Shown one piece after another: positions 11,591-59,376 of a DNA stretch of 59,607 nucleotides. The stretch is from the NCBI GenBank assembly GCA_031292275.1, contig JARLHL010000057.1, forward strand, positions 1 through 59,607, given 5' to 3'. The stretch is from Desulfocapsaceae bacterium (GTDB lineage Bacteria > Desulfobacterota > Desulfobulbia > Desulfobulbales > Desulfocapsaceae). Made by a program: the position numbers and the translations under genes. The notes beneath the pieces were generated by a model. It saw only the letters and a list, made by a program, of their open reading frames with translations. It did no database searches and was not told the origin of the DNA. Every line of letters begins with the position of its first letter. Position 1 is the stretch's first letter.

Positions 11591-11737
11591 TGCAAATATC
11601 TAAAGCTGATATATTTGCATTAATTCAAGATGCCCCATGCGCATCATAGAACTTTCCTAAGCATTCTTTCCGGCTTGTTACCGTCGTTTCCGTATCTGCG
11701 TTCCATAAAACTCGAATTCCGGTCTTGGTTCACGCGC

Positions 11738-14700
11738 ATGCCCTATCCCGATACGCCCTCCACGAAGACAAAGACTCGCCATCAGGCCACAAGTCCCGGC
11801 AGCAACCCTGTGAACATCAGGCCATCGGTCCCGGCAACGGTGGGAATAGGCGCGTCCGCCGGCGGCCACGAGGCCCTGGATCATCTTTTCCAGGCCCTTT
11901 CTCCCGACTGCGAACTCTGCTTCGTCGTCGTCATGCATCTGCCTGCAGACGGTCCATCCCTCCTGGCCGAACTCATTGGACACCAGTCCGCGATGCAGGT
12001 ATTGACCGCAGAAAACGAGATGCCGCTGCACCCGAAAACCATCCATGTGGCTCCACCGGGCATGGACCTGACTGTACGTGGCGGCCGGTTTCACCTGCAC
12101 CCTCGTCAGGATCAGGATATGCCGCATCACCCCATAGATATTTTTTTCAAATCACTTGCCGGGGATCTTGGCCAGAATGCCATCGCCGTGGTGCTCTCCG
12201 GCTTCGGCTCCGACGGCAGTCAGGGGGTCAAATGGATCAAAAAGGAGGGCGGGGTCGTCCTGATACAGGATCCGACGACGGCCATCCATCCCTATATGCC
12301 TCAGAACGCCATCGCCGCCGGGGCCGCCGATCTGATCCTGCCGGCGGCAGAGATCGCCGACAGGCTGACCAAGATCTCGAGGGACCATGGAATCCATGCT
12401 CCGCGCGCCTGTCTGAACATCGCCGCTGATGAGGACCTGACCCCCCTCTTCAATCTCCTGAGAGACCGGACCAGCCACGACTTCAGCTCGTACAAGAGGA
12501 ACACCGTGATCCGACGCATAGAACGCCGAATGACGGTCAAGGCCGCCAAAGAATTCAACAACTACCTGGAAGTCCTTGCAGAGGACCCTCAGGAAGCCCA
12601 CGCTCTCTGTCAGGATCTCCTGGTCGGCGTTACAAGTTTCTTCAGGGACCCCGACGCCTTCGACGTCCTCAACCGCGAGATTCTGCCCTCCCTTTTCGCC
12701 AATCGCGACAGGGAAGAGCCCGTGCGTATCTGGCATGCCTGCTGTGCCACCGGTGAAGAGGCCTACTCTGTAGCCATGCTGATTCTCGAGTACTTCGACG
12801 CCCAGGGCCTGCAGGCCAAAGTGCAGATCTTTGCCACCGATCTCGACGAGACCGCAGTCACCCAGGCCAGGGTCGGAATCTATTCCGATGACATCAAGCG
12901 GGAGGTGAGCCAGGAGCGTCTCCAACGCTTCTTTATCCGCAATGAGGGGCGCTGGCAGGTGAATAGCCGGTTAAGGGAGATGATTGTCTTCGCGACCCAT
13001 AATATCATCAAGGACCCGCCTTTCTCGCATCTTAACCTTCTCGTCTGCCGAAACTTTCTCATCTATCTGAATCCGGACATCCAAAGGCTGCTGCTCCCGC
13101 TTTTTCACCAGGTGCTGGTCCCGGGAGGATACCTCTTCCTGGGGTCAGCCGAGACGGTGGGTCTTCACGACGATCTGTTCAGCGCCGTCAACAAGAAGTG
13201 GAAAATCTTCTCGCGGCAGGGGGGGAAAAGCCGGGCCGAGGCTCTCTTTCCCTTCTCGGGCCCGGTCCGCAAGCTGTCCGACATCGAGCGTTCATACAAG
13301 TCCTCAGAGGCCGACGAGGCAAAGACCCTCGCCGCTGCCGAGAAACTTCTCATGGACCGCTATGTCCCCGCCCGCATAATCATCAACGAGAAGAGCGAGG
13401 TCGTTCATGTCTCACAGCGCGCGGGAGCCTATCTGCTGACCCCGGAAGGAAAACCGACCCAGGATCTCCTGAAAATGGCCCGGGAGGAGTTGCGACCTGC
13501 TCTCAGGGCCGCAATCTACAAGGCTTTTACCACCCAGCAGGAGATCGTCTATCGGGGGATACAGGTCATTACCGAAGGCGCGGAGGAGAGTGTCAATGTT
13601 ATCATACTGCCGTTGAAAGACTGCCCGCCGGCCTGCAAGCTGGCCGCAGTGATCATCGAGCCCGCCCCGCCGGCCCTGGTCCGTCCTCTGCCCCGGGATC
13701 AGGAGGACGGTGGCGACGCCGCCAGGAATTCACTGACTCGACAACTCGAGGAACAGCTGCGGGTGACGGGAGAGCAGCTCCGATCCACCAGCGAACAGCT
13801 GGAGACCTCCAACGAGCGGTTTACGCAGGCCAACGAAGAGCTGATGACGGTAAACGAGGAACTGCAGTCCACTAACGAGGAGCTGCAGTCCACCAACGAG
13901 GAACTGGTCACCGTCAACTCAGAGCTGCAGAGAAAGATGGAGGAACTCAACCAAAGCAACAGCGATATGGAGAACCTCTTCGCCAGCTCCGAGATTGCTG
14001 CCATTTTCCTTGATCGCGGCCTGCACATCAAGCGGTTTTCCCCGGCCATGGCGACAATTTTCAACCTGATTCCGGCTGATACCGGTCGGCCCTTCCGGCA
14101 TCTGAACAGCTCCATAGACTGGTCCTTTCTCCCCATCGACACGACAGCGGTTCTCGAGACCCTCACCCCAGTGGAACGGGAGGTCTGCTCAACGGTCGAT
14201 GGACGAACCTTTATTATGCGGGTCCTGCCCTACAAGACCACCGAAGGCATTGTCGACGGCATTGTCGTCACCCTGGTCGATATCAGCCAGCGTAAACAGG
14301 CAGAGAGGGCCCTGTATGCGACTCAGACAGCCCTGCGCGAAGGGGATGAACGGCTGCGGTTTGTGCTGGAAAGCTGCCACATCGGCGCCTGGGACCTTAA
14401 CTTGGATAACCATACCACCTCCCGCTCGCTGGAGCATGACCGCATCTTCGGTTACCCTGAACCGCTGCCTGCCTGGACACTGGAGATGTTCCTCGAACAT
14501 GTCCTGCCGGAGTACCGCCGGGATGTGAAAGAGATGGTCGCAGCGGCCATGGCGGCCAAGCAAGGATGGGCCTGCGAATGCCGCATCCGGCGGGCGGACG
14601 GTCAGATCCGCTGGATCTGGTTTGCGGGCCGCCATCTCACCGACCTGGCCGGTCACAGCCGGGTTGCAGGGATTATTCAAGATATAACCGACCGAAAAGA

Positions 14701-17473
14701 GGCTGAAGAGGAAAATTCCAGATTATTGAAGATCGTCCAGGAGGAGAAAGACAGACTGGCTGTACTGATCAACAGTATCACCGATGAGGTCTGGTTCGCC
14801 GATACCCAGAAGAAATTCACCCTGGCCAATCCTTCAGCCCTCAAGACATTCGGCTTGGAGGTCATGGGCCAGATTGATATTGAGGCCTTTGCCGCCAGTC
14901 TCGATGTGCTCCGCGCCGACGGAAGCCGGCGTCCCGTCCAGGAAGCCCCTCCTCTGCGCGCCCTGCAGGGCGAGGTGGTGAAGAATGCCGAAGAAGTCAT
15001 CCGCAATCCCGTCACCGGCGAACAACGCTATCGGGAGGTCAGCTCCAATTCGGTCAGAGATGCTCAGGGGAGTATCATAGGCGCCGTCACCGTTGTCAGG
15101 GACATCACCGATCGGAAGCGCGCTGAAGAGGCGCTGCGCAAATCCCGATCCAAGCTGGAGGCGGCCCTGTCCAGTATGACCGATGCGGTCTTCATCTCCG
15201 ATCAGGATGGGCAGTTTATCGAGTTCAACGATGCCTTCGCGACCTTTCACCGATTCAAAAACAAAGACGCCTGCCTGAAAAAATTTGCCAGTTACCCTGA
15301 CATTATCGAGGTTTTTATGGCCGACGGGGAACCCGCCCCCGTAGAGATGTGGGCTGTTCCCCGGGCCCTGCGCGGAGAAACCGTCACCAACACGATATAC
15401 GGCCTCCGGCGCAAGGATACCGGCGAAAGATGGGTCGGCAGCTACTCTTTTGCCCCTATCCGTGACAGCAGGGGAGTCATTTCCGGCTCGGTGGTGGTGG
15501 GACGCGATATCACCGAACTTGTGAAAAATGAAGAGGCCCTCAAGACAAGCGAACAGCTGTACCGCTCCCTCTTCGACAATATGCTCAACGGTTTTGCCTA
15601 CTGCAAAATGATCTACGACAATCACGAACCGTCTGACTTCATCTATCTGAACGTCAATGCGGCCTTCGAGGACCTGACCGGCTTGAAGGATGTGGAGAAC
15701 AAAAAGGTCTCGGAGGTTATCCCGGGCATTCGCCAGTCTGACCCTGAACTCTTCGAGATCTACGGCAGGGTCGCTTCGTCCGGTATTCCTGAACGCTTCG
15801 AAACCTTCGTCCAGGCCCTTGACATGTGGTTCTCAATCTCCGTCTACAGCCCGAAGAAGGAATATTTTGTCGCTATTTTTGATGTGATTACAGAGCGTAA
15901 GCGTGCCGAGGAGGCGCTCATCCTCAGCGAGCATCGACGAAGCCTGGCCCTGGAGGCCTCACATGCGGGGACCTGGGAGTGGAATCTCGCGACCAATGAA
16001 AATATCTGGTCCAATGAATTATGGCACCTCTACGGACTCGAACCCTTCAGCTGCAAACCATCCTACGATGAATGGCTGAAGACAATCCATCACGACGATC
16101 AGGCAAAGGTAGAACAGGCCCTCCGGCAGGCGATCGCCCAGGGTACTGCCTTCAATATCGAATGGAGGGTAGCAAAAACCCAGTGCTGGCTGGCTTCCCA
16201 CGGCCGGGCCTTGAGGGACATCCATGATCATATTGTCAGTTATGTGGGCACCGTTATGGATATCACCGAGCGCAAACTGGCCGAGGAGGAGAAAAAATCT
16301 CTGCAGATGCAGCTTATCCAGCTGCAGAAGATGGAGGCAATCGGCACCCTTGCAGGAGGAATAGCTCATGATTTCAACAATATACTTGGAGCTGTCATCG
16401 GCTTTGCCGAGTTGGCAAGGGATTCGATCCCGATGGATTCTGAGGCCGCAAACGATCTCGACAAGGTCCTGGAGGCGGGTGACCGGGCGACCCACCTTGT
16501 CAAACAGATCCTGGCCTTCAGTCGCCAGGCAAATTCTGAAATGGTTCCGCTGGAGCCTGTCCATCTGGTCAAGGAGACCATCAAACTGCTCCGTCCGGCC
16601 CTGCCTTCGACCATCACAATCAAACTGAATCTGGAAGCGGCAACAAAATTTATCCATGCCGATCCCACCCAGATCCACCAGATCGCGATGAATCTCTGCA
16701 CCAACGCCTTCCACGCCATGGAAAAGACCGGCGGCATCCTCGAAATCGGTCTCATGGACTGTCAGGTCTCCTCTCAGGACCTGCCGCCCCACGCCAAGGT
16801 ACAGGCCGGGAAATTCGTTGTACTTTCCGTTGGCGATACTGGACCGGGAATACCGCCGGAGATACAGACCAAGATTTTTGAACCGTATTTCACCACCAAG
16901 GAAGTCGGCAAAGGCACCGGTATGGGCCTCTCCATCATCTACGGCATTGTCACCACCATGGGCGGTTTCATCACCTGCGAGAGCGAACTGAATAAAGGAT
17001 CGATATTCCGCGTATTTTTCCCAGCAATTGAACCAACCCCCGGTATAGCCATCGACCGTAACGATACTATTTCCTCCGGCGAAGAACATATCCTCTTCAT
17101 CGATGACGAGATCATTCTCGCCGAGATGGGCAAAATCATGCTTGAACGCCTAGGCTATACCGTAACACTTCGGACCAGCAGCCTGGAGGCTTTGGAACTC
17201 TTCAAGACCCAGCCGAATCTGTTTGACGCCGTCGTTACCGACCAGACGATGCCCGGCATGACCGGGATGGACATGGCACAGAGGATGCTGGAAATCCGGC
17301 CGGATATACCCATCATACTCTGTACGGGCTACAGCACTCTGGTCAGCGAAGAACAGGCGAAACTCAATGGAATCAAAGAATTTATCATGAAGCCCATGTC
17401 AAAAAAGGATATTGCCCAGCGGCTGAGGAGCGTACTGGATGGCTCCGCTCAGGAGACCACAGCCCCTACATGA
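11738..17473 (+). CDS. Giant chemotaxis-type signalling fusion: CheB methylesterase + CheR methyltransferase + coiled-coil linker + multiple PAS + HisKA/HATPase_c + REC
   Basis: CheB domain ([16 protein letters not shown]...VVMHL), CheR domain ([11 protein letters not shown]...[17 protein letters not shown]), heptad linker [27 protein letters not shown], at least 4 PAS blocks, the H-box [16 protein letters not shown], HATPase [48 protein letters not shown]...[11 protein letters not shown]. The ORF opens at 11630; the start is assigned to the ATG at 11738 (MPYPD...). Confidence 0.9.
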
Positions 17474-17540: not shown

Positions 17541-17705
17541 CTACCACCGCCGGTATGAGTAGGGATAATAATACGGGCTATAGTAGTACTGTGGTGCAGA
17601 ATAATATGGATGATAATAATACGGTCTGGGATAATCAACCGGCACCACCACGCACCCGCTGCAGACGAGAATCAGCATCGCAGCTATTAACCAACGAAAT
17701 TTCAT
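17541..17705 (-). CDS. Small secreted peptide with an extreme Tyr/Pro-rich C-terminus
   Basis: AAGGAG 8 nt upstream of the ATG; signal peptide MKFRWLIAAMLILVCSGC. The mature region PVDYPRPYYYHPYYSAPQYYYSPYYYPYSYRRW is about 50% Tyr. Confidence 0.45.
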   Translation of the reverse strand: MKFRWLIAAMLILVCSGCVVVPVDYPRPYYYHPYYSAPQYYYSPYYYPYSYRRW

Positions 17706-17877
17706 TTCTCCATCTCCTTGCCCCAAAAAGGCAATTATCGTAAACCCTATCGATGCAGCCCGCCCCCCGGCCTCAGACAAAAGGGACGAACGGGGATGCC
17801 TTCAAACGGATAATAGGGATGCGGTTGATACAGTCAAGAACAAGATCTTTTTTCATTGAGCCCTTTTTGCAAAAACT

Positions 17878-18219
17878 CTAATAATAGTCCTCACGGCCAT
17901 TGCGATTATTGCGCCGATCCCCGTAATGGTCGCGATGGAAGCAGAGCACCTCATCAGGGATCCTTCCCAGGTAGGGATCTCCCCACGGTCCATGCCCGGA
18001 ATGCGACCTGTGCCAATTGCTCCCATCGTGCCGCCACCAAAATCCGCCATAGAAAAATGGTGCTGCTGCGGCAACCGGTTCGGCGACCGGCACCGGGGCA
18101 GACACTGTCACGGCCACCCCCTGAGAGGCACCGCCTGGATCGACGGTCGCTGACAACACGATTGCCGCAACAATGAAAGAACGCCAGAATCTGCCTTTTT
18201 TACACTGTTTTTTGTTCAT
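17878..18219 (-). CDS. Small secreted Trp/His/Gly-rich protein, unknown function
   Basis: Signal peptide MNKKQCKKGRFWRSFIVAAIVLSA. The mature part is ...FFYGGFWWRHDGSNWHRSHSGHGPWGDPY...HRDHYGDRRNNRNGREDYY. It lies on the same strand between the two other small secreted ORFs. Confidence 0.45.
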   Translation of the reverse strand: MNKKQCKKGRFWRSFIVAAIVLSATVDPGGASQGVAVTVSAPVPVAEPVAAAAPFFYGGFWWRHDGSNWHRSHSGHGPWGDPYLGRIPDEVLCFHRDHYGDRRNNRNGREDYY

Positions 18220-18242
18220 TCCAGGCCACCGTCGCAAGGATG

Positions 18243-18575
18243 TTACCGGCCGATCTGACGACTGACGGCGTTCTCCTGCTGATTAAGCGTCCTCTGCTCC
18301 TGCTTGGTAATATGACCGCCGTCCTGGCTTGCCATATCCCGTTCTTCCTGGCGGATCTGCCGATCTTCATGATGAAGCTTTGCAGCCTGCCCCTGCGTCA
18401 AGGCCCCTTCTCTCACCTTATTATTGATACGATTATTCTGATTTTCCAAACGCTCATTCACCTGCACCCGTCGGGGATGATCCTGCGCCCAGTCATCGGC
18501 AAAACTCTCGGTACGGCCGAAGAAAAAGAGGACTGCCGCCAACATTACAACCATCATTGTGAGCTTTTTATTCAT
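18243..18575 (-). CDS. Periplasmic LTXXQ-motif protein (CpxP/Spy/ZraP-like)
   Basis: Signal peptide MNKKLTMMVVMLAAVLFFFG; Gln/Arg/Glu-rich helical protein with an LTQGQ motif (LTXXQ) and a second TLNQQ. Confidence 0.5.
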   Translation of the reverse strand: MNKKLTMMVVMLAAVLFFFGRTESFADDWAQDHPRRVQVNERLENQNNRINNKVREGALTQGQAAKLHHEDRQIRQEERDMASQDGGHITKQEQRTLNQQENAVSRQIGR

Positions 18576-18876: not shown

Positions 18877-19680
18877 CTAACAGATCACGTTCCAGAGCAT
18901 CTTGGTGGCAACCACATAGAGAAAGAGTGCGAAAATGCGTTTTAATTTGTCAACCGGCAGCGCGTGGGCCAGTTTGGCCCCGAGCGGTGCCGTAAGGACA
19001 CTGAAACAAACAATAAACAGCATAGCCGGCAGATAGACATACCCCAGGCTGTAGGGAGGCATACTGGCTGCCCCCGGGTTGTTGACTGCATATCCGACTG
19101 CGCCGGCGATGGCTATGGGAAAGCCGATAGCCGCTGAAGTGCCGATGGCCCGGTGGGCCGCCACATTGCACCACATCATGAAAGGAACGGAAAGGGAACC
19201 GCCGCCGATGCCTACCAGGGCCGAGGCCAGACCAATGGTTGACCCGACACCGAACATGCCGATATTGCCTGGTAATTCTCGAGACGCCTTCGCCTTTTTG
19301 TTGAGCAGCATCTGGGTGGCAACAGAATAGAGAAAGACGCAGAAAAAGGCCTTGAGGAAACCGGTGGAAAGCCGTGAGGCGACCATGGTACCCAAAAATG
19401 TACCGATCAGGATGCCGGGAATAAGACGTTTCACGATGGCCCAATCAACCGCGCCGCGCCGATGATGCGACATGAAACTGGAGATTGAGGTGAAAATGAT
19501 ACAGGCAAGGGAAGTCCCCAGGGCCATATGCATAATCAGACCCGAAGGTATCCCCTGTTTGGTAAAACAGAAGATCAGCATTGGTACAATGACCAGACCA
19601 CCTCCCACTCCCAACAGACCGGCGAGCAAGCCGGAAATTAAGCCAACAGCGAAATACATCATAGGAATTTCAAAAGACAT
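18877..19680 (-). CDS. TauE/SafE-family (DUF81) anion exporter
   Basis: Two internally repeated 4-TM halves with the family signatures GLLAGLLGVGGGLVIVPML and GIGGGSLSVPFMM. RBS GAGGG upstream of the ATG at 19680; the ORF track's longer start is at 19704. Confidence 0.85.
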   Translation of the reverse strand: MSFEIPMMYFAVGLISGLLAGLLGVGGGLVIVPMLIFCFTKQGIPSGLIMHMALGTSLACIIFTSISSFMSHHRRGAVDWAIVKRLIPGILIGTFLGTMVASRLSTGFLKAFFCVFLYSVATQMLLNKKAKASRELPGNIGMFGVGSTIGLASALVGIGGGSLSVPFMMWCNVAAHRAIGTSAAIGFPIAIAGAVGYAVNNPGAASMPPYSLGYVYLPAMLFIVCFSVLTAPLGAKLAHALPVDKLKRIFALFLYVVATKMLWNVIC

Positions 19681-20216
19681 CTTACCCTCTATTGTTCGAG
19701 ACACCGTCTTAAACGAGCGCTTGTGATCCTCAAAATGTCAAAAATTATTTTAGCATGTATTGCCCGTAAAGATTGGAAGGACATGCATTGCGACCGCTCC
19801 TGCCCGCTGGCCATTGGTTTTTCACTTACGGGAAAAACCGTTCTGTGAAATTCTATGCAATCTAAACAGTTAGATGACAATTACAGCAGAAATTGTCAAG
19901 ACATTTTTGCAGGCCAGCGGGGGGAATCCCGATCCTTCCGCTGCTCAGGCTCACCGCAGTCGCGAGGAGCAGAAGGGAGGTCAGTCTGAAAACATGCTAT
20001 CTCATATTTTTTCAAATATCAGGGGAAGCGACAGCCCTTCATCCAACAAGAGAAATAAATTTTGTTGGAGTCTTCCTCTCAACCGTGATATCTTTTCTTC
20101 CGGTTAATATGGTCCCTGCTGTTTCTTTTTTTCAGCAAAAAAGGCCGGGGAGGATCTTATGACGTTCAACTCTTTCAAAATATTACATGGAATATATCAG
20201 GGCTGGAGAACATATC

Positions 20217-20489
20217 ATGAACAAGTTATGCGTGCTTTGCGTTTGTGTTGCTATTGCGATGAGCGTAACCGGGTGCAGCAAGACCACGGTCAACCCCAAC
20301 TACACGTCGGCAAATCCTGATTTGATGCGAATAGGTGGTGAATCGCCGGAAACCAAAGAACCGGAGATCATTAATATGGGATCCTACTGTCTTCGTGTTG
20401 TCGATAAATGGAAACTCGACGGCAGGACGCCGGATGGTCAGACGATCTGGTCCAAGGATACGTTTCGCAATGTTATCCCCTGTCGGTAA
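20217..20489 (+). CDS. Small lipoprotein, unknown function
   Basis: MNKLCVLCVCVAIAMSVTGC shows a lipobox (VTGC); 90 aa; first gene of the AT-richer block. Confidence 0.45.
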   Translation: MNKLCVLCVCVAIAMSVTGCSKTTVNPNYTSANPDLMRIGGESPETKEPEIINMGSYCLRVVDKWKLDGRTPDGQTIWSKDTFRNVIPCR

Positions 20490-20916
20490 AACCGATTGCC
20501 GGGAAAGGATCTCCGGCATTGATCCATTGAGGAGATGTTTTGAGGCAATACGGTACTCTCTCATGACGGCATCGGTCTTCCTTCCCTCCCGCCACGTACG
20601 CAATTTACCTCGGAACCGCGATATTGGGATATAATCTGTCCTGGCGGTTGCCGAAGGCAAGTACTCCAGGAACCGAGCACGCAACACTGTTTTCACGATG
20701 ATCAATGTCAGAAAATAATACAGCCCGTATCGGGATCAATTACATGAATGTTCCCCGGGAATTGGGGGAGCGCCGGACCAAAGAGACGCCTTTCCCTATT
20801 TCGTTGCGGCAGATCGGTTTGGTTGCACCATGCTGGTTTATGGAAAGTTTCATGCATTCACACCTGTATCAGCAGTAACGAACCTGTTATTTATGCCATC
20901 ATAAAAGGAGATGACT

Positions 20917-21621
20917 ATGACCAGATATTTCTTCAGACCTTTACTGTATGCGACAACCGTTATTTTCTGTTTTGCGACGCATTCCGTGGCGGAAGATCAG
21001 CGACGGATCGTACTCAATGAAAAGCAATTCAAGGAATCGTTCCTTGACACGGTCAGTGTCTCAGGCGGTATTCGTGCCGGCTTCATGTACCAGAGCCCCC
21101 TGGAGCATGTCGACATCAATGAACTCTATGTCAATTTGCAGCATGATATAGAGGATCAGGATGCTGTTCTCTGTGTAAACATGGTAAGCCGTGACGGCCG
21201 ATATTCAGCCTCGTGGGACTATGCTCTGGGGAAACAAGCTGCCGGCTCCATCGCCGTCACCCTGCCGTCAAAATATCAGACACAGGTGTCGAGCTATTCG
21301 CCCGATGCATTAGTTGTCCTTGCCGCCATAGCGAAAAAAGAATGCGGCTCCGGCGAAATGAAATATGTCCCGACCAGCTGGGGCGCAGCTACCAAATCCG
21401 ACTATATACTGTATGTAAATTCAGGGAATACGGATACGATTATCGGTATTCCGGGCCAGACGGAAAGGATTCAGTGCGCCAGGATTACCGCTGACAGCAC
21501 GATTGCCTATGATACGCGCTGCATAATTGCAAAAGATATTCTTGATGAGCCTAAAAGTATATTCCTGGTGAGAAAAAATTTCGGCAACAGGCTGCCAAAC
21601 GTCGAGTTTCCTGTGAGATAA
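20917..21621 (+). CDS. Secreted hypothetical protein
   Basis: AAGGAG 6 nt upstream of ATG 20917; signal peptide MTRYFFRPLLYATTVIFCFATHSVA. No recognised domain. Confidence 0.5.
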   Translation: MTRYFFRPLLYATTVIFCFATHSVAEDQRRIVLNEKQFKESFLDTVSVSGGIRAGFMYQSPLEHVDINELYVNLQHDIEDQDAVLCVNMVSRDGRYSASWDYALGKQAAGSIAVTLPSKYQTQVSSYSPDALVVLAAIAKKECGSGEMKYVPTSWGAATKSDYILYVNSGNTDTIIGIPGQTERIQCARITADSTIAYDTRCIIAKDILDEPKSIFLVRKNFGNRLPNVEFPVR

Positions 21622-21624
21622 CTG

Positions 21625-22662
21625 GTGAAAATCACGAGGACATTAAAAAGATTTTTAGCGGTAATAGGAAATGTCTTTCTTGCTGCAGCGGTATCCGAAC
21701 CTGAAAAGGATCACTTTCGGAACTTATCGAACAGGCACCCTCGTTATTTGCATTTCATAGCATTATTATTCTGTATTTACGTATTATTTTTGATGTTTTT
21801 GCTAACCAGAGCCGTCATAAGCTCCCTGACCACCGGCTCATTCATTATTTCCGCGAGAACGGAACGAATTGAATATCAACCCGACAGCATTGATCCCCCA
21901 AGAATAGCATTCCATAATGCAACATTTCATTGGGATGAGATCAGTGATGAGAAGTTTGACCCATCAGTTTCGACCTCAACGAGATCAAAATCATTGCCTC
22001 CGGAAAGCAGCGGTTCCCTGCAGATTCAAGGTAAATCAAAGATTGTTTTTTCAAGGGTGGGTACAGGGCCGCTGCACATTCAAATTCAAAGCAAAAACCC
22101 TACCATTGTCTACGATGAAAATGATCAAAGGCAATTTTCTCTGCCCGGTGTTGTTGATTTGGTGCTGAACGATCCGAATCAATTAATAAATCAAGGCATA
22201 TCATGGAAATACAACATCGACGGACCGTTAATAATAGGTCGGGTCCCGACCTTTGGCCTGCAGTTGCAGAACGGACTCCTGCTTGAAGGTGAAATCCAGA
22301 TGGTTGCCAAACAGTTATTGTCCGGCAACCATTACAAAGTGGAACCGTATAAGCTGCAGTTGGGTGACGAAATACAATTCGTGCCCGCCGAGCCAAAGAC
22401 AAGCGGTCTGGTGACATTCGACGCTGATCGAGGAATGCTGATCGTCGCCATTGTCGAGGCTCGATCCGCGACAATAAAAAAATTTAGAGAAACGAATTTT
22501 AAAATTCAAAATAATTTGTGGTCCAAACTCGGCAAGGATCAGGAACTGGTGATAACCTGGGCGATAATGCTTCTTGTACCGGGTATCCTGGTGTTTCTTA
22601 CCCGTTTATTGTATTTCCACCTGCAACTGAAATCCCATGAAGACTCTCAGCAGTCCCCATGA
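21625..22662 (+). CDS. Membrane protein, unknown function (N-terminal TM pair and a C-terminal TM anchor)
   Basis: GTG start 3 nt after the preceding stop (operon-like). Hydrophobic segments FLAVIGNVFLAAAV, FIALLFCIYVLFLMFLL, ITWAIMLLVPGILVFLTRLLYF. Confidence 0.45.
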   Translation: MKITRTLKRFLAVIGNVFLAAAVSEPEKDHFRNLSNRHPRYLHFIALLFCIYVLFLMFLLTRAVISSLTTGSFIISARTERIEYQPDSIDPPRIAFHNATFHWDEISDEKFDPSVSTSTRSKSLPPESSGSLQIQGKSKIVFSRVGTGPLHIQIQSKNPTIVYDENDQRQFSLPGVVDLVLNDPNQLINQGISWKYNIDGPLIIGRVPTFGLQLQNGLLLEGEIQMVAKQLLSGNHYKVEPYKLQLGDEIQFVPAEPKTSGLVTFDADRGMLIVAIVEARSATIKKFRETNFKIQNNLWSKLGKDQELVITWAIMLLVPGILVFLTRLLYFHLQLKSHEDSQQSP

Positions 22663-22722
22663 GCAATAAGCAGCTGGAATGCATATGATTTTCTGCAAGA
22701 TATTTCCAATATCGCCTCCATT

Positions 22723-24420
22723 TTGAATAAAAAGAGATACTTCATGCATCGCTATTTTCACATCAGCACTGTCTTCTTTTTCCTCAGCATCTGCTTTGCG
22801 CAAGCCTCTTTTTCATCAGATGCATATATCAAAGTCGATGATAACGAACTCGGCCAGGGCATACTGCGTCAACGGGGCATTGAATGTCTACTCATAACTC
22901 CTGCCCATGTTGTTGAAAACGCTTTAAAAGTCGACGTGACCGTGGCCGACAAGACAAAATATCCGGCAGAAATTATGGAATTATTTCCGGGTGATATCAG
23001 CGTGCTGCGGATCAAGGGCGATGAGTCGTCTCCGTGCAGCCATGCAAGCTGGTCTAACACGAGCAATTTAAACGCCCTGCTGGAAAAGGAAAATCAGGGC
23101 GAACTGCGAACCATGCTCGCTGACGGAAGTATCCGCATAACTCCCGTTGATATTGTCGGCTATGATAAATACCGAAACATTAATGTCCGCCCGACCCATC
23201 AATCGGATGCAATTTTGAAAGGTGAGAGCGGGAGCCTCCTGTATATTGCCGGTCAGCTTTCCGGGATGCTTCTTTCCGTGAAAGACGGCATTGGCAATGT
23301 TATTCGTCAGGACGTGCTGGCCAATACCCTTGCCTTGTTTTTTGAAGATTCTCATCAGGCGGATAGACAGGGCGCGCATCAGCCGAATAGCAAAACCACC
23401 GCAAATCCTCCGGCTCAAGAAACAGCCCTGACCGGTCAACCAGGAATTTCCGGTATCATTGCCGAAGGCGCAGGAGTCGAATATCCCGTCACCTTGCAGG
23501 AGAACAGTCCCGTCCGCCTGAGGTTTTCGGCCACAGGGGATACCGAGAGATACAGTGTCGAAATATGGGATTCAAAGCATAAGGCAGTCTATCGAAATCC
23601 GGGCAAAAATTATTCAGGGACAGAATCCGTCAGTATCCCCTTTACACCGCCTCGAAATGATACCTACACGCTGCACATTACGGGTACTCAAGGCGAAGGG
23701 AAGTACGCAGTCGAGATTCAAACGATAGCCTTGGATTCTCAATTGCGCAGTCCGAAAAATATTATCCGGATTGGAGAAAATGCAACTGAGGGTATACTTG
23801 CCCAGGGCGCCGTTGCCGAGTACCAGGTCAGGCTGGAGGAAAACAGCCCCGTCCGTCTGGAATTCCCGGCCACAGGAGATACGGGGAAATACAATGTCGA
23901 AATATGGGACTCGAAGAAACAAGCAGTCTATCGGGATCCGGGTAAAAATTATTCCGGGACAGACTCCGTCAATATTCCCTTTACGCCACATCAAGATGAT
24001 ACCTATACACTGCGTATTATCGGGACTGAAGGAGAAGTGAAGTATACCGTCAGGATAGCATCGATTGCCCTGAACGCTCAATTGCGAGGCGATGCAAATA
24101 TTATCCAGATTGGAGGCAATTCCGTTGAAGGCGTACTTGCTCAGGGCGCTGTCGCAGAGTACCGGCTTGAGCTGGCGGCATACACCCCGGTCCGTCTGAA
24201 CTTTTCCGCAACAGGGGACAACGGGAAATACAATGTTGAAGTATTTGATTCAAATGGGAATATTGTATACCGGGATCCCTACAAACGGTATAGCGGCACC
24301 GAGGCGGCCATGCTCCCGCTCACTGTATCCAAAAACGATACCTATTTAATACGCCTCAAAGGAATTGAAGGGGAATGCAAATTTTCGCTGAATATTATGC
24401 GGGCGCCGGGGAAATCGTAG
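22723..24420 (+). CDS. Secreted trypsin-like serine peptidase with three C-terminal PPC (pre-peptidase C-terminal) domains
   Basis: Signal peptide. A chymotrypsin-fold catalytic His context LLITPAHVV and Ser context KGESGSLLY. Three repeats of about 113 aa (ENSPVRL.F.ATGD..KYNVEIWDS...YR.P...YSGT.S..IPFT....DTYTL.I.G..GE.KY.V.I) match the PPC-domain pattern. Confidence 0.75.
   Translation: MNKKRYFMHRYFHISTVFFFLSICFAQASFSSDAYIKVDDNELGQGILRQRGIECLLITPAHVVENALKVDVTVADKTKYPAEIMELFPGDISVLRIKGDESSPCSHASWSNTSNLNALLEKENQGELRTMLADGSIRITPVDIVGYDKYRNINVRPTHQSDAILKGESGSLLYIAGQLSGMLLSVKDGIGNVIRQDVLANTLALFFEDSHQADRQGAHQPNSKTTANPPAQETALTGQPGISGIIAEGAGVEYPVTLQENSPVRLRFSATGDTERYSVEIWDSKHKAVYRNPGKNYSGTESVSIPFTPPRNDTYTLHITGTQGEGKYAVEIQTIALDSQLRSPKNIIRIGENATEGILAQGAVAEYQVRLEENSPVRLEFPATGDTGKYNVEIWDSKKQAVYRDPGKNYSGTDSVNIPFTPHQDDTYTLRIIGTEGEVKYTVRIASIALNAQLRGDANIIQIGGNSVEGVLAQGAVAEYRLELAAYTPVRLNFSATGDNGKYNVEVFDSNGNIVYRDPYKRYSGTEAAMLPLTVSKNDTYLIRLKGIEGECKFSLNIMRAPGKS
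23455..24405 (+). repeat. Three tandem repeats of about 339 bp each (the in-frame PPC-domain repeats inside the protease gene)
   Basis: The repeat units begin near 23455, 23794 and 24133, which is a 339-bp period. Protein-level identity between units is high. Confidence 0.7.
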
Positions 24421-24502
24421 CCCCCTGACGCCCTTCAGGCTTTGGAGCTGGGGACCCGGTAAAAAGCACCCTCTCCACCCGGCTCCTGTGCTGGCAGGGA
24501 TA

Positions 24503-25606
24503 TCAGTGAGGTAATTCCCTTTCGACGGGGCAGTGCAGGGACTCTTCCATAAAGAGCGTTGCAAAACATTTGTTACAGGAAATGCATGCGGCCTTTCTGC
24601 GGTCGCCATCCGCCCATCTCGCAATAAGATGTGGCTCTCTGATCAGAGGGCGCGAAAGGGCCACATAATCAGCAACCCGTGAAGTTATAACGTCCTCCGC
24701 GATATCCAATGACAGAAAGCCTCCTACAAGAATAAGAGGAATTTTTATTTCCTTCTTAAACGCCTTGGCGGCCGTTCTGTAATAGACTTCTTTTTTTTCC
24801 GATTTTGCAGTACCGATCCTGGAGGGAATGCGTCTACCGGATTCAAAAGTTCCTCCGCTGATCTCGATTGCGTCCATTCCACGATCTTCCAGCATGAGGG
24901 CGACACTGAGCATCTCGTCAACGGTCATGCCGCCGTCAAGGAAATCCTCAGAGTTCATTTTGACCATCACGGGAAAAGCCTTTCCAACCCTGTTTCTTAT
25001 TTCTTCGTATACTTCGAGAAGGAACTTCGCCCGATTCTCAAGGCCTTCACCGTAGCCATCCGTTCTCTTGTTGTAATAGGGAGATAAAAACTGACTCAGC
25101 AAATATCCGTGAGCCGAATGAATCTGCACAGCATCAAATCCGGCCTTGACAGATCGTGCCGCCGCGTCTCCAAAAGCCTGTACGGTTCTTTTAATGTCAT
25201 CGACTGTCATTGCGGACGCTCTTTTACTGCCGTCGATAAAAAGGTCTGACGGTCCAAGAGCGGGATGTTCATCTTTTCCCTTGCCTCTATTTCCAGCATG
25301 GGCAAGCTGAATGGCAACCCTTCCGCCGTTTTCATGGACAGCAGAAGAAACTTTTTTCAATCCGTCGAGCATGGCGTCAGCATAAGCGCCCATCTGTCTG
25401 GCTCCGGCCTGCCCTTCCATATTCACATGGGCATGGCCGGTAATCACCAGTCCGACATCGCCACGAGCAAGTTTAGCCATACAGTCCAACAGCTGGTCTT
25501 TTACCGTTCCATCAAGTTCCGCCATTGCCTCATGGGTTGCGGATCTTACAAAACGATTCTTGAGCTTCATCCCGTTTATCTCTGTAGTATCAAATACTGT
25601 TGGCAT
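24503..25606 (-). CDS. NADH:flavin oxidoreductase, Old Yellow Enzyme family
   Basis: OYE TIM-barrel motifs: HAAHGYLLSQFLSP, GFDAVQIHSAHGYL, GRRIPSR. C-terminal Cys cluster CISCNKC...HC. Confidence 0.9.
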   Translation of the reverse strand: MPTVFDTTEINGMKLKNRFVRSATHEAMAELDGTVKDQLLDCMAKLARGDVGLVITGHAHVNMEGQAGARQMGAYADAMLDGLKKVSSAVHENGGRVAIQLAHAGNRGKGKDEHPALGPSDLFIDGSKRASAMTVDDIKRTVQAFGDAAARSVKAGFDAVQIHSAHGYLLSQFLSPYYNKRTDGYGEGLENRAKFLLEVYEEIRNRVGKAFPVMVKMNSEDFLDGGMTVDEMLSVALMLEDRGMDAIEISGGTFESGRRIPSRIGTAKSEKKEVYYRTAAKAFKKEIKIPLILVGGFLSLDIAEDVITSRVADYVALSRPLIREPHLIARWADGDRRKAACISCNKCFATLFMEESLHCPVERELPH

Positions 25607-26027: not shown

Positions 26028-26612
26028 CTAAATCTTTCTGAAGTTCTGCGTGTAATTTCTTCTATTTCCAAAAAATTGATCAACTTCATAACCTTGGCTG
26101 CAGACAAGATTTTTAAGCTCTTCAACACTTAATTTATCTGGGTCTCCAGCCAATTCCGAAACAGATAAAATACCATTATTTTTAAGTATCCGATGGATTT
26201 CTCTTAAATATTCAATTTTGTTTTCAACTTCTCCAAGAACAGTTACCATCAAAACTCTCTCAAAATATTCGTTTTCGAAATCGAGAGTTTTGCCATCACA
26301 TAATATATATTCTACGTTTCTGATCTTTTGCTTTTCGAGTCGTTTTTTGGCAATATCAAGCATATCCTGCTGAATATCCAGCAAGTAGAGCGTACCTTTT
26401 TGCAGTATTTTAGCAAGGGGCGGGCTGAAATATCCTGGCCCAGGGCCAATTTCTAATACATTAAAGTGCTCCATTAAATTCAATCTTTGGATTAACTGTT
26501 TAGGAGAAAGAAAAATATTTCTTATAGGTATTAGTAATGTAAATGCATATTTTGCAGGGAATATACCTTTTCCAGCAAAGCTTTTTCTGCTTGTTGTGTC
26601 GTATTTATCCAT
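26028..26612 (-). CDS. Class I SAM-dependent methyltransferase
   Basis: Motif I VLEIGPGPGYFS, followed by LLDIQQDMLDIAKKRL and ILCDGKTLDF. AT-rich codon usage suggests an acquired gene. Confidence 0.8.
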   Translation of the reverse strand: MDKYDTTSRKSFAGKGIFPAKYAFTLLIPIRNIFLSPKQLIQRLNLMEHFNVLEIGPGPGYFSPPLAKILQKGTLYLLDIQQDMLDIAKKRLEKQKIRNVEYILCDGKTLDFENEYFERVLMVTVLGEVENKIEYLREIHRILKNNGILSVSELAGDPDKLSVEELKNLVCSQGYEVDQFFGNRRNYTQNFRKI

Positions 26613-58668: not shown

Positions 58669-59376
58669 ATGGTTGGCGGGCGTATGAACTCGAAAGCAAA
58701 GGTTGATATTAACAAAAATAGATTATACATAACCATTGCAGGGAAGGCTGTAAAACAAAATTTGGACAAACTCTATACTGATGTAAGGTTCTGTGTTGCA
58801 GATTTAAAAACCGGCTTTGATGTAATAACTGATCTTTCTGAATGTAGCCTCGGACATCTAAATGGTGTTCCAACGTACAGAAAGATAATGAATTTTCTTA
58901 TTACAAAAAAGATTGGAAATGTTGTTCGGGTTATAGACGAGAATAGTTTAGTGTTTAAACAAGTAATGAATATCACATCAAGAATATGCGGATACAAACC
59001 TATTTATGTGTCAACTCTTGAGGAGGCAGAAAAAAAACTAGAATGTTTAAAAAAACGCAACTCTATTCGTTTTAATATTAATGAGTTACCTGTTGACTAC
59101 GTAGCAAATGAAACGAATGGAAAAGGTAATATTTATAGCTTATCAACAAGCGGTTGTGCCATAGACTCGGCAACATTGCCAGTTGTTGTAGAAACAGAAA
59201 TATCCATTAAATTTGAATTTAAGACTCAAGGCTCGCCTTCAGGTGAATTTCTTATTAAATCAAGAGTTGTCAGAGCAGATGGTAAATTGTTTGCTGTTAA
59301 GTTCAAAGACCTTGGCGATGATCTAAAAGATCAATTATTGAAGTGTCTTATTAGTGAAGCTCAACGTGAATTATAA
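58669..59376 (+). CDS. AT-rich hypothetical protein; the C-terminal half may be PilZ-like
   Basis: An RNSIRFNI...LSTSGCAID (R..R / x-S-x-G-like) arrangement followed by a beta-rich tail. Low-GC codon usage suggests acquisition. An alternative start is MNSKAKV at 58684. Confidence 0.4.
   Translation: MVGGRMNSKAKVDINKNRLYITIAGKAVKQNLDKLYTDVRFCVADLKTGFDVITDLSECSLGHLNGVPTYRKIMNFLITKKIGNVVRVIDENSLVFKQVMNITSRICGYKPIYVSTLEEAEKKLECLKKRNSIRFNINELPVDYVANETNGKGNIYSLSTSGCAIDSATLPVVVETEISIKFEFKTQGSPSGEFLIKSRVVRADGKLFAVKFKDLGDDLKDQLLKCLISEAQREL

Follow-up and report, generated by a model that had tools for sequence, protein, structure and literature searches.

A predicted HtrA-like serine protease and two linked partner families in Desulfobulbales and distant bacteria

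The DNA analysed here was a 59,607-nt stretch of a Desulfocapsaceae bacterium genome (assembly GCA_031292275.1, contig JARLHL010000057.1; the whole stretch is hereafter called the window), and its feature of interest was a block of four plus-strand genes, g1 to g4, at 20217-24420, predicted to encode a lipoprotein, a secreted protein, a membrane protein, and a secreted serine protease, respectively. Judging from their strict linkage, close spacing, and natural fusions (see below), g2, g3, and g4 are a three-gene unit whose products most likely cooperate in the cell envelope, and g1 is a Desulfobulbales-only accessory to this trio. The catalytic domain of g4 belongs to a known superfamily; its two partners, g2 and g3, are undescribed families. 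The block was organized as follows:

20036-20216 (+): conserved non-coding leader 5' of g1, left edge of the conserved block, presumed promoter region
20217-20489 (+): g1, 90-aa lipoprotein, in an open reading frame (ORF) that opens at 20187
20490-20910 (+): g1-g2 intergenic region, 421 nt, partly conserved relative to locus L006 (see below)
20911-21621 (+): g2, 236-aa secreted (periplasmic), predicted all-beta protein; signal peptide present, four Cys conserved
21625-22662 (+): g3, 345-aa predicted inner-membrane protein
22744-24420 (+): g4, 558-aa secreted S1C/HtrA-like serine protease without PDZ; alternative TTG start at 22723
22819-23358 (+): predicted protease domain of g4 (residues 26-205)
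22906-22908, 22993-22995, and 23227-23229 (+): g4 catalytic codons His55, Asp84, and Ser162, respectively
g4 residues 206-235: variable linker
23449-24417 (+): three tandem ~113-aa repeats of g4, PPC-like beta-sandwich (R1, 23449-23784; R2, 23785-24123; R3, 24124-24417)

Gene layout and encoded proteins

A first-pass annotation of the window had described a four-gene operon with spacers of 3 to 60 nt. Four plus-strand ORFs were indeed present within 20187-24420, but the spacers were 421 nt (g1-g2), 3 nt (g2-g3), and 81 nt (g3-g4; 60 nt with the TTG start at 22723), and the figure given for them did not hold for g1-g2. The close gene spacing in the trio suggests translational coupling. Scans for sigma-70 promoters and terminators gave no enrichment over shuffled sequences, with one promoter-like site at 20690-20719 in the g1-g2 gap; there was no excess of the sigma-54 promoter pattern either, and no good site of this kind was located upstream of g1 or g2. 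A hairpin 3' of g4 was not better than those of shuffles (z -0.7), and no Rfam match was obtained across 17.4-26.1 kb.

The start of g1 was probably ATG 20217, because it was preceded by a GGAGAA ribosome-binding site and because the orthologues were called at 90-91 aa. By sequence inspection alone, the g1 product carried a signal peptide ending in a lipobox of the form [LVI][ASTVI][GAS]C (...AMSVTG↓C), leaving a mature form of ~70 aa with two conserved Cys; (T/A)(G/S)C was found at the same position in all 12 orthologues, which also had in common the motif INPNY(S/T)SANP(D/E)(L/W)M and the C-terminal ...PCR. No family match was found for g1 in Pfam, NCBIfam, PADLOC, or PHROGs, the only PADLOC-DB match (to E2; E 7.6e-4, 17 bits) being at chance level. 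The antisense ORF 20226-20705 (159 aa) was discarded as spurious: it overlapped g1, whose frame was conserved in the 12 orthologues.

The g2 product had a Sec-type signal peptide (cleavage SVA↓ED), and its four Cys were conserved across the homologue alignment; it is a predicted disulfide-bonded periplasmic beta-sandwich protein of a new family. For g2 and g3, neither sequence nor fold comparisons gave a match in Pfam, NCBIfam, PADLOC, PHROGs, or PDB, and their profiles retrieved nothing from PDB sequences. The two were not homologous to each other (hhalign probability 0.7%). The initial calls of a lipoprotein (g1) and a secreted protein (g2), and of three genes without a recognisable family (g1 to g3), were thus borne out.

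The g3 product had hydrophobic helices at both ends, and its AlphaFold2 (AF2) model was composed of an N-terminal helix, a transmembrane (TM) helix, a beta-rich domain of ~225 aa, and a C-terminal TM helix. The number of Lys plus Arg per 10 residues was 2.8 in the N-terminus, 1.8 in the loop 24-43, and 1.05 in the beta domain, and the first hydrophobic stretch was of 14 residues and charged in the orthologues. On account of this charge distribution and this short, charged first stretch, g3 was more likely a protein with two TM helices, N-in and C-in, than the three-TM protein initially proposed, and its layout was read as a cytoplasmic amphipathic N-terminal helix, TM1 (~residues 44-66), a periplasmic beta-rich domain of ~240 aa, TM2 (~residues 306-330), and a short tail. 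The cytoplasmic N-terminus was strongly conserved in Desulfobulbales, with L19, A20, A21, P26, E27, and P39 nearly invariant. Member-by-member Pfam and NCBIfam scans of the g3 alignment gave nothing, the PADLOC-DB match was at chance level (E 0.043), and Foldseek against PDB gave no match at E<=0.001 (TM-scores ~0.1); g3 is a new family.

The g4 product, 100% identical to the 558-aa NCBI product P4L42_10060, likely started at ATG 22744 and had a Sec-type signal peptide (residues 1-22, cleavage AQA↓S). H55, D84, and S162 were invariant in 47/47 aligned homologues and kept in 9 distant homologues, and the motifs around this triad (TPAHVV, GDISVLR, and SDAILKGESGS) were retained in all distant homologues; we take them to parallel the HtrA signatures H, D(I/L)A(L/V), and TDAAINxGNSGGPL. 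The g4 family profile matched DegP, DegQ, and HtrA1 in PDB at E ~1e-3; the Pfam family Trypsin_2 matched 20/47 family members (best E 3.8e-10), and it did not match the g4 of the window at E<=1. NCBIfam HtrA/DegP models matched g4 residues 34-104 at 24 bits against cut-offs of >400, and PHROG matches were weak and limited to two families without known function. Because of the invariant triad in HtrA-like motifs together with the weak DegP/HtrA matches and the Trypsin_2 matches in family members, g4 is classed as a predicted active, S1C/HtrA-like serine protease with a chymotrypsin-type H/D/S arrangement, in agreement with the first-pass annotation, which had recognised a chymotrypsin-fold catalytic region and three tandem modules. 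No PDZ match was found in g4 or its family (Pfam and NCBIfam), the C-terminus being occupied by the three beta-sandwich repeats instead.

These repeats had a period of 339 nt at the DNA level and identities of 67% (R1/R2), 55% (R2/R3), and 46% (R1/R3), and across the Desulfobulbales family they varied more than the protease domain (~50% versus 66% identity). They had been called triple PPC domains at first; three repeats were real, but PPC (PF04151) scored 18.0-18.1 bits, below its gathering threshold of 25.9, and Por_Secre_tail and FlgD_ig scored as well or better. The type IX secretion sorting models also stayed below their cut-offs (PF18962, 19 bits versus 27; TIGR04183, 14.7 versus 23), FlgD_ig was a sub-threshold match, and among 47 relatives at E<=0.01 PPC was found in 15 members, Por_Secre_tail in 22, and FlgD_ig in 19. 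"PPC-like beta-sandwich" is therefore a fair description, membership in PPC being not established. As in secreted peptidases carrying PPC or PF18962, a C-terminal beta-sandwich (~70-110 aa) followed the peptidase domain, with sub-threshold matches in many g4 relatives; unlike in these peptidases, g4 had three tandem copies rather than one terminal copy, and the module was dispensable or replaced in relatives, which had 0, 2, 3, ~5, or ~6 repeats or an FGE-sulfatase domain. The host lineage is not known to have a type IX secretion system.

Distribution of the trio and its natural fusions

For each of g2, g3, and g4, 60-85 homologues were collected, and all those with organism names came from Desulfobulbus, Desulfocapsaceae, or unclassified (delta)proteobacterial metagenome-assembled genomes (MAGs). 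Desulfobulbus propionicus DSM 2032 contained g3 (Despr_0016) and g2 (Despr_0017) homologues, and the trio was also present in Desulfobulbus elongatus DSM 2908. When each species was represented by a single genome, a scan gave 21 loci, 19 of them from Desulfobulbales; g2, g3, and g4 were adjacent and co-linear in 19/19 of these, and in L001-L005 (tblastn). g2 was more conserved than the g4 protease. g1 adjoined the trio in 12 of the 19 Desulfobulbales loci, upstream in 11 and downstream in L009. The conservation of the proposed four-gene set thus extended to the trio and only in part to g1, and what stood of the proposed operon was an operon-like g2-g3-g4 unit, with g1 421 nt away.

The closest relative, L006, shared 76-89% aa identity with the block proteins. 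Nucleotide homology between the two (blastn) was confined to 20036-20489, 20528-20736, and 20856-24425, with unrelated flanks: the leader from 20036 onward was 84% identical and the sequence further upstream was unrelated, and within the g1-g2 gap 20528-20736 and 20856-20910 were 71% and 83% identical, respectively, with ~300 nt extra between them in L006. A TauE/SafE gene adjoined the cassette both here, where it was upstream and on the other strand, and in L004 (8442-9380) and L005 (7920-8858) (+), two MAG loci of the termite-gut type in which it was downstream and on the same strand and the other flanks differed; this shared neighbour may be coincidental or left over from an earlier arrangement.

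A g3 profile search against 1.84 billion representative proteins returned 228 clusters at E<=1e-3, and four of these (P0295, P0320, P0344, and P0316) were natural g3::g4 fusions with the layout TM-beta domain-TM-short basic loop-signal-peptide-like segment-protease. The signal-like segment between the two parts implies that the beta domain and the protease would both be on the periplasmic side. Distant g3 homologues and fusions began directly with the TM helix, without a cytoplasmic domain. The first-pass suggestion that the protease had its own membrane partner was thus supported, g3 being linked to it in all 19 Desulfobulbales loci and fused to it in four clusters.

Hidden Markov models (HMMs) built from the three family alignments detected g2, g3, and g4 together in seven distant loci (L025 and L027-L032):

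L025, unclassified Proteobacteria MAG: trio with overlapping stop/start codons
L026, Gammaproteobacteria MAG: only g2 and g4 detected by HMM, with an undetected 320-aa ORF at the g3 position
L027, Aliiglaciecola isolate: trio in the order g4-g2-g3
L028, metagenome contig: trio with a 319-aa protease gene without C-terminal repeats
L029, Nitrospirae bacterium YQR-1: g2 plus a g3::g4::FGE-sulfatase fusion
L030: g2 plus a fusion
L031: trio with a 316-aa protease gene without C-terminal repeats
L032, Vibrio tubiashii FP17 megaplasmid pFP31, 132820-145512: trio in the order g4-g2-g3, with an 846-aa protease of ~6 repeats

The three L032 proteins, WP_272788555.1, WP_239826561.1, and WP_171381579.1, were all annotated as "hypothetical protein" by the NCBI Prokaryotic Genome Annotation Pipeline (PGAP), and this megaplasmid was the one match of g3 in tblastn against plasmids. 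The surroundings of the distant trios were diverse: (i) the trio of L032 preceded type VI secretion genes (ImpA/TssA-like, Hcp, and TssB) by ~4 kb, with a metallo-beta-lactamase-fold protein in between; (ii) L026 was preceded by a secreted subtilase with PKD and CBM5/12 domains; (iii) in L028 (1-7212), dnaA(-)/rnpA-yidD-yidC-mnmE immediately preceded the trio, which adjoined the gene cluster of the replication origin, and the low locus tags Despr_0016 and Despr_0017 suggest that the D. propionicus trio was origin-proximal as well; and (iv) directly 3' of the trio there were same-strand genes of unknown family in L028 (8161-11036; 350 and 608 aa) and L031 (8071-8979; 303+ aa), and a 613-aa TIG-domain protein directly 3' of the FGE-sulfatase-bearing fusion in L029 (8127-9968). 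The genes following these repeat-less (L028 and L031) or FGE-sulfatase (L029) versions might encode, as separate proteins, the binding module that the proteases lack. No common recognisable family was found among the extra genes flanking the distant trios.

Proposed function and alternatives

The signal peptides, the lipobox, the Cys pairs, and the two-TM topology proposed for g3 place the likely action of these proteins in the periplasm at the inner membrane. The reading preferred here, to which a probability of about 45% was given, is that g2, g3, and g4 form a three-component, inner-membrane-associated periplasmic protease module inherited and exchanged as a unit. In such a module, g3 would dock or position g4 on the periplasmic face of the inner membrane with 1:1 stoichiometry, and g2 would be a third subunit that regulates or inhibits g4 or presents its substrate. 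The PPC-like repeats of g4 could stand in for the PDZ domains of HtrA as an exchangeable substrate- or ligand-binding module, and the module would probably act locally, processing or degrading particular proteins of the envelope or the secretome, rather than carry out bulk extracellular digestion. The g1 product, possibly at the outer membrane, would have been added in Desulfobulbales and may act as a lipoprotein adaptor by analogy with NlpI-Prc and LbcA-CtpA. In these two systems, a soluble periplasmic serine protease is paired with a lipoprotein partner that selects substrates, and g1 is likewise a small lipoprotein beside a protease; they differ from the present locus in that their proteases are of the S41 class versus the S1C-like g4, and in that g1 is optional and has no TPR or similarity to NlpI or LbcA.

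Several points weigh against the preferred reading. g2 and g3 had no detectable relative of known function, and the roles assigned to them are guesses. The AF2 model of g3 was of medium confidence only (predicted local distance difference test score, pLDDT, 71.6). The signal-like segment of the fusions had an AxA-type site, and the protease could thus be released rather than tethered. g1 was not found in 7/19 Desulfobulbales loci (one of which, L021, had too little upstream sequence to judge) and was absent from all distant versions.

Compared to HtrA/DegP/DegS (S1C), g4 had the same His-Asp-Ser order, predicted chymotrypsin fold, HtrA-like motifs (DISVLR versus DIALLK), and predicted periplasmic export, but it differed in (i) the absence of PDZ and the presence of three PPC-like repeats (or other modules in relatives) instead, (ii) the marginal similarity (PDB E ~1e-3, and the g4 of the window below the Pfam cut-off), and (iii) being always encoded with two dedicated partners lacking a known fold. 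HtrA-class periplasmic proteases play a central part in the quality control of the envelope and in its signalling, and PDZ is considered their key regulatory element; in the g4 lineage, PDZ would have been replaced by exchangeable beta-sandwich or FGE-sulfatase modules, and two obligate partners without described relatives would have been gained.

One alternative is a signalling pathway by regulated proteolysis, of the DegS/RseB/RseA type, in which g3 would be the membrane substrate whose conserved 43-residue cytoplasmic N-terminus holds or releases a cytoplasmic factor, g2 would shield the g3 periplasmic domain, g4 would be the site-1 protease, and g1 would sense an outer-membrane signal. The types of player are the same as in Escherichia coli DegS-RseB-RseA (a protease of the HtrA type, a beta-rich protein of the periplasm, and a membrane protein bearing a periplasmic domain), the g3 N-terminus was highly conserved within Desulfobulbales, and a sigma-54 activator was located upstream in L003. 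However, neither the g2/RseB nor the g3/RseA pair was related by sequence or fold, RseB appearing only as a non-significant Foldseek match (E 0.13, TM 0.08). Neither next to the block here nor in the flanks of the relatives L001-L005 was there a gene for a sigma factor, an anti-sigma domain, or a site-2 protease (RseP), and g3 had no Pfam or NCBIfam match that would make it an anti-sigma switch. The lack of a cytoplasmic domain in distant g3 and in the fusions puts the output domain outside the conserved core. This pathway was accordingly judged improbable.

About equally improbable was a second alternative, that g4 is an extracellular protease for nutrition or attack, with g2 as its periplasmic inhibitor or chaperone, g3 as a membrane helper in export or maturation, and the repeats serving for surface binding after export or else being cut off. 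Secreted peptidases typically carry C-terminal domains of the PPC type (according to Pfam; the matches here were weak), the L026 trio came after a secreted subtilase, and that of V. tubiashii was ~4 kb from type VI secretion genes. Cognate periplasmic inhibitors encoded beside secreted proteases are a known arrangement, e.g., AprA/AprI; the higher conservation of g2 than of the protease would, however, be unusual for an inhibitor. Action at the inner membrane is favoured by the fusions of g3 with g4 and by the constant association with a membrane-protein gene, repeat-less proteases existed (L028, 319 aa; L031, 316 aa), and no secretion-system genes were linked in the Desulfobulbales loci.

A bolder form of the preferred module, in which the trio would be a previously unrecognised, widely scattered envelope machine built on two families without known relatives in sequence or structure, with a membrane-docked HtrA-like protease that reads a target through swappable extracytoplasmic modules (PPC-like repeats or FGE-sulfatase) and cleaves a specific partner, was considered rather unlikely, albeit less so than either alternative; if true, such a machine could offer a new way of signalling in the envelope, of maturing surface proteins, or of waging conflict between cells. 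On present evidence, the trio was not a dramatic departure from known biology. A search of the literature library (D. propionicus locus tags; trypsin-like/FGE-sulfatase neighbourhoods) returned no description of the module. A role for the trio would cover two families that now have no Pfam or NCBIfam model, and its presence in cultured D. propionicus, D. elongatus, V. tubiashii FP17, and Aliiglaciecola makes the function directly testable.

Base composition, past movement, and other features of the window

The block was bordered by two minus-strand genes:

18877-19704 (-): left neighbour, TauE
24503-25606 (-): right neighbour, flavin oxidoreductase of the old yellow enzyme (OYE) type

The block had also been described as AT-richer than its flanks and as a possibly acquired system. 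Its guanine-plus-cytosine content (GC) was 0.475 versus 0.500 for the window and was lower only with respect to its upstream flank; a GC equal to or below this value was found in 33% of all 4234-nt segments of the 59.6-kb window, and the dip was therefore true only locally and not statistically distinctive. GC at third codon positions (GC3) of the block genes was 0.47-0.56, all within 1 standard deviation of the mean of the window genes (0.558; standard deviation, 0.114).

A recent acquisition of the block as a mobile island, or a role for it as a conflict/defence cassette, was judged very unlikely, more so than the two alternatives above, with evidence on both sides. The homology to L006 stopped exactly at 20036 and 24425, the flanks differed in every genome compared, and the distribution was patchy across phyla (Gammaproteobacteria and Nitrospirae), with one copy on the Vibrio megaplasmid and a variable C-terminal module. 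In six related genomes (L001, L003, and L007-L010), the g2-g4 cassette was 7-16 GC points below its flanks (0.41-0.43 versus 0.50-0.58; flanks of 2-13 kb, ~1.9 kb for L008), which suggests that a low-GC lineage of the cassette has been passed between members of the Desulfobulbales. Against an island stood the ordinary composition in this window, the absence of any tRNA gene from the window and of any integrase, transposase, or border repeat from the block edges (the nearest transposase-like fragment being ~3 kb away, at 27.6 kb), and the lack of a PADLOC match of note, of a PHROG match for g1-g3, and of a phage match for g2 (tblastn; the sole gene searched there). Moreover, all parts were envelope proteins with no NTPase or nuclease, and in the high-GC Desulfobulbus genomes L011-L021 cassette GC matched the flanks and tracked the host (correlation 0.81), as for long-resident genes. 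Past horizontal movement of the block is plausible, because the block was a homology unit with differing neighbours, patchy spread, and low-GC cassettes in six genomes, but a recent acquisition by this genome lacks compositional support.

Elsewhere in the window, an S-adenosylmethionine (SAM)-methyltransferase gene in the 26028-26612 (-)/27602-28300 region had a very low GC of 0.34 and a GC3 of 0.29, and near it was a short ORF without a Pfam match, whose C-terminus (...ELARLKRE...ERDILKKTAAYFAKES) resembles IS3-family transposase OrfA; this patch looks more like acquired DNA than the four-gene block does. On the other side of the block, a 1947-aa single ORF at 11630-17473 (+) combined CheB methylesterase, CheR methyltransferase, many PAS, HisKA/HATPase, and receiver domains, and three small secreted or lipoprotein-like ORFs without a family, one of them with a Tyr/Pro-rich tail (...PYYYHPYYSAPQYYYSPYYYPYSYRRW), were located at 17541-18575 (-) between this sensor kinase and TauE. 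A 235-aa ORF at 58669-59376 (+) had a GC of 0.34 and a GC3 of 0.26, the lowest GC3 among the genes examined.

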